A program made the position numbers and the translations under genes. A stretch of 34,419 nt of DNA. Origin: a virus. Taxonomy: Duplodnaviria > Heunggongvirae > Uroviricota > Caudoviricetes. Positions 13,573-14,320 of this stretch are shown here, in pieces (within the stretch, counting starts at the first letter, position 1; the number at the start of each line of letters is the position of its first letter). Under the pieces are notes generated by a model that saw only the letters and a list, made by a program, of their open reading frames with translations, searched no databases and was not told where the DNA came from. The stretch lies in IMG/VR virus record IMGVR_UViG_2671180847_000009; one strand, written 5' to 3'.

Positions 13573-13914
13573 TCAGCGCACGCCGTCGTGCTCAAGGCTG
13601 AAATGATTGCCATCCGGGCGGTTTTTAAAACGACCGCCCCATGCGCCACCAAGGGATTCCCAGTACTCGCCCAGCTCGCGGTAGGCCTCTGTGCGGGTCT
13701 GATATTCACCGTTAATAAACAGATTAAAATCCACGGCCAGCCGCTGGCAGTGCAGGCTGTTGGCAATGCCGGATCCCTTTTGTGCGTTGAGTTTTGCCTG
13801 TTCTGGCGTGCGGTACGCCTCACCGAACGTCAGGCCATAACCGCGCTGATGGGCAAACTGGATGAGTTTTCCGATCATGACGGTAAATTGTTGTTGCTTA
13901 TCGGAGAGTTTCAT
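13573..13914 (-). CDS. Endolysin, peptidase M15 family (L-alanyl-D-glutamate peptidase type)
   Basis: 113 aa; S-L-H-C-Q-R-L-A-V-D and D-G-N-H-F motifs match the zinc-binding signature of M15 endolysins. Confidence 0.7.
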   Translation of the reverse strand: MKLSDKQQQFTVMIGKLIQFAHQRGYGLTFGEAYRTPEQAKLNAQKGSGIANSLHCQRLAVDFNLFINGEYQTRTEAYRELGEYWESLGGAWGGRFKNRPDGNHFSLEHDGVR

Positions 13915-14018
13915 TTTTGCTCCTTATGAGGTTGCTGAGGTTTGCGCAGCCAGTACCACAGTGCCCGGATAATTTTCCAGGCAATGGCGGCAGCTTTTTG
14001 TTCCCTGCGGGACAGCAT
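13911..14018 (-). CDS. Small ORF (35 aa, basic, Trp-rich) between holin and endolysin
   Basis: ATG at 14018 preceded by AGAGGAG; stop TGA overlaps the endolysin ATG (ATGA); predicted peptide MLSRREQKAAAIAWKIIRALWYWLRKPQQPHKEQK. Not in the ORF track (too short). Confidence 0.3.
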   Translation of the reverse strand: MLSRREQKAAAIAWKIIRALWYWLRKPQQPHKEQK

Positions 14019-14023
14019 TGCTG

Positions 14024-14320
14024 TTACTCCTCTTTGTTCTCTTTCTCGCCCAGCTTCCGGCGCATATGACGCAGGAAGATTTCAACAATCTGGTAACCGG
14101 CAACGCCCATTGCAGTGCCTGCGCCGGCAATGGCCAGTGGGTCAAGGTTCGGGTAGCGAACCAGCAGGGCAGTGGCAGAAACCCCCAGCGCGCTCCCCAG
14201 CAGGGTTCGGCCCACAAACAACCGCAACGTAATCGGCTCTGCGCCAGCCAGCACCCGACTTGCGGCAGCGATTCCGCCCAGAATGCCCAGAGTGATAATG
14301 GTGCGCTCATGCTCCTGCAT
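14024..14320 (-). CDS. Putative holin (98 aa, three hydrophobic segments, charged C-terminus)
   Basis: Hydrophobic stretches IITLGILGGIAAASRVLA, LFVGRTLLGSALGVSATALLV, LAIAGAGTAMGVAGYQIV then KLGEKENKEE tail; sits immediately upstream of the endolysin. Confidence 0.5.
   Translation of the reverse strand: MQEHERTIITLGILGGIAAASRVLAGAEPITLRLFVGRTLLGSALGVSATALLVRYPNLDPLAIAGAGTAMGVAGYQIVEIFLRHMRRKLGEKENKEE

Follow-up and report, generated by a model that had tools for sequence, protein, structure and literature searches.

A spanin-less lysis cassette with a conserved hairpin and a probable small cationic peptide gene in the tail operon of an HP1-like Escherichia prophage

The lysis module of an HP1-like prophage

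The DNA studied here, a stretch of 34,419 nt from a tailed virus (IMG/VR record IMGVR_UViG_2671180847_000009; 'the window' in what follows), extends from a hok gene to the stop codon of an integrase gene, i.e. it is essentially a whole prophage. This prophage, which is intact, is an HP1-like member of the Peduoviridae found in E. coli and E. albertii, and its lysis module, at 13573–14320, forms part of a single long late operon. Scans with Pfam and PHROG profiles placed every gene between 10.8 and 16 kb on the minus strand, and the module itself consists of a holin gene, a short open reading frame (ORF) that we call orf35, and the gene of an M15-family endolysin. What is new about the locus is the clade to which it belongs: HP1-like coliphage prophages that have a hairpin in the place of the spanin genes Rz/Rz1 and, within the cassette, what is probably the gene of a small cationic peptide. 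The features are, in the direction of transcription:

14776–15924, minus strand: tail sheath gene (DUF2586 / PHROG 907; PF10758, E = 1.8e-128; phrog_907, E = 1.1e-147)
14324–14779, minus strand: tail tube gene, HP1 Orf24 family (PF10772, E = 1.1e-50; phrog_1182, E = 1.1e-65)
14024–14320, minus strand: holin, 98 aa (PF04550, E = 5.6e-28; phrog_175, E = 3.5e-32)
13911–14018, minus strand: orf35, an unannotated small ORF of 35 aa that matches no family and exactly fills the 109-nt gap between holin and endolysin
13573–13914, minus strand: endolysin, an M15 (LAS-fold) zinc peptidase of 113 aa (PF13539, E = 3.2e-11; phrog_1768 endolysin, E = 2.9e-15)
13509–13572, minus strand: spacer of 64 nt with an RNA hairpin at 13535–13566, at the position that Rz/Rz1 occupy in relatives
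13215–13508, minus strand: tail assembly chaperone, Phage_TAC_10 (PF10963, E = 1.6e-26)
13027–13173, minus strand: DUF6890 ORF (PF21830, E = 1.7e-23)
10853–13027, minus strand: tape measure protein (PF10145, E = 8e-29; phrog_28, E = 1.8e-104)

The DUF2586 sheath and the HP1 Orf24-type tube upstream of the lysis genes, together with the Phage_TAC_10 chaperone, the DUF6890 ORF and the tape measure gene downstream, make this a tail module of the HP1 type, and the window tube is 51% identical to the tube of HP1. The sheath match begins at residue 45–47 of a longer ORF; the start called by the Prokaryotic Genome Annotation Pipeline (PGAP) in L001, which is 98% identical, corresponds to position 15924.

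Comparison of the gene order with relatives

The original prediction, made from the letters of the sequence, had placed a lysis cassette between the tail tube and the tail chaperone and had set this arrangement against that of P2. Both points stand: the PF10772 tube lies upstream and the PF10963 chaperone downstream on the minus strand, whereas the order in P2 is L-X-Y-K-lysA-lysB-lysC-R-S, with FI-FII followed directly by E/E+E'-T. What does not stand is the view of the embedding as something notable, since the HP1-like branch of the Peduoviridae is normally organised in this way (HP1, ESSI2_ev015, YenM324 and ∼63 species). When one genome per bacterial species was scanned with an alignment of the endolysin, 78 loci were returned, and about 63 of these species-level loci read tube-holin-endolysin-Rz-Rz1-chaperone (in Enterobacter, Citrobacter, Salmonella, Yersinia, Serratia, Xenorhabdus, Photorhabdus, Providencia and other genera). 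In these relatives, the Rz/Rz1 pair sits between endolysin and chaperone and abuts the chaperone gene, and the holin gene overlaps or abuts the endolysin gene. Escherichia phage ESSI2_ev015 and Yersinia phage vB_YenM_324 (YenM324) are annotated in the corresponding order, sheath-tube-holin-endolysin-Rz-Rz1-chaperone-tape measure, and for HP1 it has been stated explicitly that hol and lys lie between ORF24, the tube gene, and ORF25 (PMC7312051). Lysis genes embedded in the tail operon are already known, and they are ordinary for HP1-like phages. Two Yersinia relatives (L027 and L041, ∼3320–3785) have an additional ∼450 nt between Rz1 and the chaperone gene.

The window thus has the order sheath, tube, holin, endolysin, chaperone, tape measure in common with HP1, ESSI2_ev015 and YenM324, and its proteins are 75–77% (endolysin), 48–54% (holin) and 48–54% (tube) identical to those of the latter two phages. 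Unlike these modules, it lacks Rz/Rz1 after the endolysin, and it has a 35-aa ORF before the endolysin and a conserved hairpin after it. HP1 differs further in that it uses a pinholin and a signal-arrest-release (SAR) muramidase instead of a three-helix holin and an M15 peptidase (PMC7312051). The P2/186 cassette (Y-K-lysA-lysB-lysC) comes from the same virus family, and the holins of 186 and PSP3 belong to the same Pfam family as the window holin. In contrast to the window, however, the P2 cassette has head-completion genes (L, X) on one side and tail-completion genes (R, S) on the other, comprises a lysozyme-type endolysin, LysA and spanins, and leaves the FII tube gene directly followed by E/E'.

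Holin and M15 endolysin

The 98-aa protein matched the PF04550 profile (Phage_holin_3_2) over positions 1–85 of 86 with 97.6 bits, against a cut-off of 25. Three hydrophobic segments were found at residues ∼7–27, 34–54 and 61–83 (Kyte–Doolittle peaks of 1.75, 1.49 and 1.23), AlphaFold2 predicted helices at 2–23, 29–55 and 61–97, and the C-terminal tail is charged, with a mix of basic and acidic residues (RHMRRKLGEKENKEE). The protein is 41–42% identical to the holins of phages 186 and PSP3, and 27% identical over 86 aa to gp29, the holin of phage phiKT (E = 6e-11).

For the 113-aa protein, the PF13539 profile (Peptidase_M15_4) scored 44.1 bits, again against a cut-off of 25. Residues R35, H55, D62, D101 and H104 are all present, and none of them varies when the window protein is aligned with its homologues from ESSI2_ev015 and YenM324; in a solved L-Ala-D-Glu endopeptidase (PDB 8q2g), SRHLHGLAVD and DGVHF line up with the motifs H55-x6-D62 and D101-G-N-H104, although the overall match to this protein is weak (E = 0.07). 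The counterparts in ESSI2_ev015 and YenM324, with the 75–77% identity given above, are annotated as endolysins. No signal or SAR sequence and no N-terminal hydrophobic segment were seen in the endolysin, which therefore depends on a hole-forming holin. A search of NCBIfam gave no match for the holin, the endolysin, the orf35 peptide, the tube or the chaperone. Judged by these profile and residue matches, the two proteins are the holin and the M15 endolysin of a lysis cassette, and the descriptions in the original prediction, a three-helix holin-like protein and an M15-family endolysin, are borne out by the three hydrophobic segments of the one and the zinc-binding and catalytic residues of the other.

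Absence of spanins from a clade of prophages

No spanin-like pair had been noticed in the first reading of the sequence, and homology, lipobox and transmembrane domain (TMD) scans across the whole window upheld this. Among late-strand ORFs of 50–220 aa, the only one with an N-terminal hydrophobic segment, as expected of an inner-membrane spanin (i-spanin), was the holin. Searching the window by tblastn with Rz of ESSI2_ev015 and YenM324 and with orf25 of HP1 gave a best E-value of 0.016 and no Rz1 homology; this best match, to HP1 orf25, was rejected as it falls in a DUF4376 tail-fibre gene. A six-frame lipobox scan of the window for an outer-membrane spanin (o-spanin) returned a single weak candidate on the late strand, a 43-aa ORF at 13521–13652 (minus strand) that runs in an alternative frame over the 3′ end of the endolysin gene and the hairpin. 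We rejected it as a chance lipobox on the grounds of its atypical lipobox T-T-A-C (STTAC; Thr at −3), a mature part of only 18 aa and the lack of an i-spanin partner. This ORF is located exactly where a spanin remnant would be. The lipobox scan of the window also gave no unimolecular spanin of the T1 gp11 type (N-terminal lipobox and C-terminal TMD), and all unassigned late genes of the window match tail or baseplate PHROGs.

Rz/Rz1 were absent from every copy of the window type examined, in E. coli, where 42 genomes share the region, and in E. albertii (L005), 22 IMG/VR contigs and 6 metagenome contigs, which were read directly. In all of these, the endolysin gene is followed by no more than the 64-nt hairpin spacer and is preceded by the 109-nt gap that orf35 fills. 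Two sister lineages have the same spanin-less layout: L151 (tube 92%, holin 81% and endolysin 95% identical to the window; small ORF of 39 aa) and L105/L113 (tube 84%, holin 71% and endolysin 86% identical; small ORF of 41 aa). Throughout the clade (window type, L151 and L105), the former spanin slot is a spacer of 64–100 nt with a hairpin. Because this layout is common to all three lineages, it is ancestral to a clade and not a recent lesion.

Of 5426 complete E. coli genomes, 41 have a chromosomal prophage to which the region is 95–99% identical, and one more matches at 60–80%; the L105 type was not found among the complete E. coli genomes. The copy in STEC711, 98.2% identical and situated between flk/hok and pdxB, carries a full P2-family set of genes (integrase, Cox, replication, portal, terminase, capsid, tail and fibre genes). 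A megablast search of 50,697 phage records with the region gave no match, and the best tube protein match was 56% identical; the clade is therefore known only as prophages. Outside it, one locus of the survey, on an AT-rich 2.8-kb contig of a metagenome-assembled genome binned as Bacillales (L032, 1040–1991), has the genes for tube, holin, M15 endolysin and chaperone in this order, with a spacer of 48 nt, and has lost its spanins independently.

A conserved hairpin in the former spanin slot

The spacer downstream of the endolysin gene contains an inverted repeat with arms of 13 bp (13535–13547 and 13554–13566; 100% complementarity) and a 6-nt loop. An earlier reading as a perfect 12-bp repeat at about 13534–13565 was correct in that the repeat is perfect and slightly off in its extent, which is 13 bp (13535–13566). 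The predicted hairpin has a folding energy of −18.6 kcal/mol (z = −4.9), which none of 200 shuffled sequences reached. Five of the 13 pairs of its stem are G-C, the stem is followed by CCUCUUAUUCUUGAC, and of all terminator-like sites on the minus strand the hairpin ranks first. L105 maintains the stem with two double compensatory changes, one from U-A to G-C and one from A-U to U-A; L151 does so with a paired insertion, which gives a G-U pair. Loop and flanks vary, while stability stays between −18.6 and −23.5 kcal/mol in lineages with 84–92% tube identity. The retention of the stem by compensatory changes alongside a variable loop and variable flanks argues for selection on RNA structure, and the suggestion in the original prediction that the repeat may be an RNA element gains support from the compensatory changes in the sister lineages.

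The tract after the stem, CCUCUUAUUCUU, is pyrimidine-rich and interrupted; it reads CCACUGAUUCUU in L151 and CAUCUUCUUCCU in L105. At gathering thresholds, no Rfam family matched the hairpin, and in relatives with spanins no equivalent was present at the junction on the chaperone side of the endolysin. The minus strand showed no sigma-70-like site between 10500 and 17000, and the P2 late-promoter dyad TGT-N12-ACA occurred eight times, as expected by chance, with none of the matches near 13,000–16,000. Because no promoter-like signal precedes the 12 kb of essential tail genes downstream, the hairpin must allow read-through. By analogy with other late operons, it is most likely a leaky attenuator or a stabiliser of mRNA 3′ ends; the P2 record, for instance, lists a putative attenuator where the lysis genes of its O operon end. 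Like such elements, the window hairpin is a stem-loop that divides genes required in high copy or for lysis from genes required in low copy and that has to be read through; unlike them, it is followed by a pyrimidine-rich tract with no clean U-run and has no match in Rfam.

orf35, a small ORF between holin and endolysin

The gap between the holin and endolysin genes holds an ORF that the original prediction overlooked, with the sequence MLSRREQKAAAIAWKIIRALWYWLRKPQQPHKEQK. A Shine–Dalgarno motif (GAGGAG) lies 8 nt upstream, the ATG follows the holin stop codon by 5 nt, and the TGA overlaps the endolysin ATG (ATGA). The frame is open in 11 of 13 DNA alleles read, which include in-frame indels of −3 and −9 nt, and a further in-frame indel of +9 nt was found among database proteins, so that all three indels in full-length alleles keep the frame. 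In L151 and L105, this slot is taken by ORFs with their own Shine–Dalgarno motif and overlapping junctions; the one in L151 has 39 aa and 61% identity, and the one in L105 has 41 aa and a net charge of +9. With the L105 orthologue, BLASTP produced no alignment, whereas MAFFT aligned the two at ∼34% identity with the pattern LS..Q.A...W..(I/L)R.L..LR.

Comparison with L151 was the most telling about selection. Synonymous differences per site (pS, 0.53) equal those of the flanking genes, nonsynonymous differences (pN) are 0.23, and the resulting pN/pS of 0.43 is the lowest of the six reading frames (0.72–2.3 in the other five). Across comparisons, pN/pS of orf35 ranged from 0.18 to 0.43. The nucleotide divergence from L151 is 0.29, compared with ∼0.5 for neutral change, and only 4 of the 29 differences are at second codon positions. 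On these sequence comparisons, orf35 is probably a real gene under relaxed purifying selection.

Searching phage records by tblastn with the orf35 peptide found nothing. A profile search that covered 1.84 billion representatives exhaustively returned clade members only, including one new divergent member (P0018) that led to L151; two further hits (P0017 and P0019) were rejected as repeat-protein artefacts.

Peptide properties and comparison with the disruptin of phiKT

The orf35 peptide carries a net charge of +7 and has no TMD, signal sequence or Cys. AlphaFold2 predicted a helix at residues 4–25 (predicted local distance difference test score of 75), with a hydrophobic moment of 0.62 that 74 of 2000 shuffled peptides (∼4%) reached. 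A core, AAIAWKI(I/L)R.LW.WL, is conserved, and Y22 is replaced by H, R or C in other alleles; inspection of the helical periodicity would place this residue on the polar face of the predicted helix.

These features are those by which disruptins, a class defined by function and not by sequence, have been recognised (bioRxiv 10.1101/515445): the peptide is shorter than 80 aa, has a charge of at least +4, lacks a TMD or signal, is predicted to form an amphipathic helix, and is encoded with the lysis genes, here in the holin–endolysin gap, of a prophage in which no spanins were detected. The reference case is gp28 of phage phiKT, an amphipathic 56-aa peptide with a charge of +7 that complements a lambda spanin defect (Holt et al., bioRxiv 10.1101/515445). 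In this part of the phiKT genome (L153, 3781–4666; JN882298, 36780–37665), its gene stands between those of endolysin and holin. The GenBank label of gp28 is still 'OmpW family transmembrane protein'.

Both peptides are small and strongly cationic (56 aa, +7 for gp28; 35 aa, +7 for orf35), predicted to be helical and amphipathic, and free of a TMD or signal. In each case, the gene is flanked by those of the holin and endolysin in a coliphage that lacks spanins, and the partner holins are homologous. The window peptide differs in being shorter, Trp-rich and predicted to form a single helix, and phiKT differs from the window in being a virulent podophage with an endolysin of the T4-lysozyme type. 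By analogy with gp28, a disruptin-like action on the outer membrane is the single most likely role of the orf35 peptide, but we propose it tentatively, as one possibility that is far from secure. It is likewise doubtful, though worth stating, that the peptides of 35–41 aa might form a second, sequence-unrelated disruptin family that replaced Rz/Rz1 in a temperate P2-like coliphage lineage.

Other features of the prophage

In the stretch from the end of the chaperone gene through DUF6890 (13027–13260, minus strand), the 3′ end of the chaperone gene reads ...GTA AAA AAA TAA, with a slippery A AAA AAA at the last codons, and the DUF6890 frame stays open upstream across the chaperone stop codon, where it reads KKIKSHLGAIDRNDLTRM... 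By analogy with E/E+E' of P2, DUF6890 is probably a −1 frameshift extension of the chaperone via A AAA AAA. PGAP calls DUF6890 as a separate gene of 48 aa.

Just past the baseplate end of the prophage, at 600–740 on the minus strand, lies a Hok/Gef-type toxin ORF of 46 aa (MSQKSLTAITFCVTAILIIWMLHGSLCEIRM...), separated from the first late gene by ∼830 nt without an evident gene. Elsewhere in the integrated prophage, a gene for a ParM-type segregation ATPase and a partition/stability gene adjoin the replication endonuclease gene (∼24460–25734, minus strand; 31458–32736 in L001); such genes are unexpected in a chromosomally integrated P2-like phage. Two Rfam families matched above gathering threshold within or beside an early-region gene of the 'ash family', namely C4 antisense RNA (79 bits; 29365–29452, minus strand) and the Hfq-binding RNA isrK (71 bits; 29488–29562, minus strand).

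Discussion

We are fairly confident of the overall picture of the locus: what the cassette is, its position as in HP1, and a clade that lacks spanins and has gained an additional ORF and a conserved hairpin. For two of its parts, alternatives have little weight. The M15 peptidase could be a virion- or tail-associated enzyme that degrades the cell wall for DNA entry and no endolysin at all, which would explain why its gene stands among tail genes, and small M15 peptidases are known as tail-associated lysins in other phages. We consider this very improbable: in the ∼63 relatives, the orthologue (65–83% identity) lies between the holin gene and Rz/Rz1 in a complete lysis cassette, the same slot in HP1 is taken by the experimentally characterised hol and lys genes (PMC7312051), and no second endolysin candidate was found in the prophage. 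The inverted repeat, for its part, might be a protein-binding palindrome in the DNA or a scar of the spanin deletion, given that it occurs only in the spanin-less clade and exactly at the former spanin position, and that symmetric changes in both half-sites would likewise preserve a palindrome. Yet besides the two double substitutions, one lineage has a paired insertion that creates a G-U pair, which works in RNA but not in a symmetric DNA half-site; the loop is free to vary while stability is held between −18.6 and −23.5 kcal/mol; and the repeat lies within a transcribed intercistronic spacer. The DNA reading is therefore improbable, and we retain the RNA element.

The status and role of orf35 are more delicate, and a number of observations count against a peptide gene with a disruptin-like function, or against the accompanying view of the hairpin. 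The sequence of the ORF changes quickly: in every comparison it is the most diverged part of the lysis module, with 61% identity between lineages whose neighbouring genes keep 81–95%. Within the window type, 27 of its 108 columns vary, evenly over the three codon positions (8/9/10), so that these counts carry no coding signal alone and only the more distant comparison with L151 is informative. Premature stops interrupt the C-terminal tail in two alleles, and frameshifts occur in two variants from databases. The ORF matches no family of Pfam, PHROG or NCBIfam, and a homology search headed by the 41-aa orthologue found 16 proteins only, all clade members that are unnamed or called 'hypothetical'. 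The amphipathicity of the peptide is moderate (moment 0.62, compared with 0.89 for LL-37), and its family shows no similarity to phiKT gp28 (hhalign probability 0.1). The unrelated L032 also lacks spanins, yet has neither a small ORF nor a hairpin, and in the clade itself the loss of spanins and the gain of the ORF are a single evolutionary event, which makes their association statistically light. Finally, the U-run behind the hairpin is poor and differs between lineages, which makes terminator activity uncertain.

Much of this would suit an orf35 that is no gene at all, merely a fast-evolving 109-nt spacer, open by chance and left behind by the rearrangement that removed the spanins. Such a spacer would explain the missing PGAP annotation, the variable columns without an excess at third positions, a divergence within the type that nearly matches the rate of synonymous change in the neighbouring genes, the stop and frameshift variants, and the lack of homologues outside the clade. 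It would not explain why three lineages keep a frame with a Shine–Dalgarno motif that starts at the holin stop and ends at or over the endolysin start, one of which, L105, has only weak protein-level similarity to the window ORF. Nor would it account for three in-frame indels in full-length alleles, for two premature stops that both leave the predicted helix intact, or for the comparison with L151 (divergence of 0.29 against ∼0.5 for neutral sequence, only 4 of 29 differences at second codon positions, and pN/pS of 0.43 against 0.72–2.3 in the other frames). We thus regard a chance ORF as unlikely.

A genuine orf35 need not act on the outer membrane, however. There may be no dedicated disruptor in this clade, with the membrane failing by turgor and shear and orf35 serving as a translational coupler or a timing regulator, for example as an antiholin-like peptide that times the holin or the endolysin at the cytoplasmic face of the membrane. 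In a survey of phages of Gram-negative hosts, 91 of 677 had no identifiable spanin, and it has been hypothesised that disruption of the outer membrane is unnecessary in some settings (PMC6139136); L032, too, does without spanins and without a small ORF. In the window, orf35 is translationally coupled on both sides, and the weak constraint on it agrees with a role for which the precise sequence is of little importance. Relatives, on the other hand, couple holin and endolysin by direct overlap, with no ORF in between. Moreover, lineages with 61% identity share the charge and the core AAIAWKI(I/L)R.LW.WL, with pN below pS, so the peptide sequence is not free to vary. It is established that E. coli spanin mutants arrest as spherical cells once the outer membrane is stabilised (PMC10865782), and a stable spanin-less coliphage clade therefore suggests that compensation exists. 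A role without membrane disruption is a possibility that we hold as tentatively as the disruptin-like one.

Lysis probably follows a canonical holin–endolysin pathway. The holin would make large holes in the inner membrane at a programmed time, and the soluble cytoplasmic M15 peptidase would leave through these holes and cut peptidoglycan cross-links, probably at the L-Ala-D-Glu bond, by analogy with M15 endolysins of the T5 type. The cationic amphipathic orf35 peptide, which has no export signal, would exit through the same holes and could then destabilise the outer membrane in place of spanins, as gp28 does in phiKT; we propose this third step only tentatively. On the late mRNA, the hairpin would act as a leaky terminator or a 3′-end stabiliser and so hold the head, sheath, tube and lysis messages above those for chaperone, tape measure and baseplate.

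To our knowledge, only one disruptin has been demonstrated so far, and the holin of the window is homologous to the holin of the one phage that has it. Roughly 13–15% of Gram-negative phages have no spanins, and the way in which these get past the outer membrane is still called an open question (PMC12819732, from 2026; PMC6139136). The clade described here offers a clean comparative case for it, in that close relatives differ mainly in having either Rz/Rz1 or a tiny cationic peptide gene and a hairpin. Spanin-bearing sister phages with endolysins 75–77% identical to that of the window are at hand for a direct comparison with what would be, if true, a natural swap of spanins for a peptide. Should the proposed role not hold, the clade remains a documented, stable lineage of coliphages without spanins. 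Should it hold, disruptins would arise repeatedly and also in temperate phages, a Trp-rich scaffold of 35 residues would become available for antimicrobial peptides, and a small cationic ORF within a lysis cassette that lacks spanins would serve as a rule by which to search for more of them.

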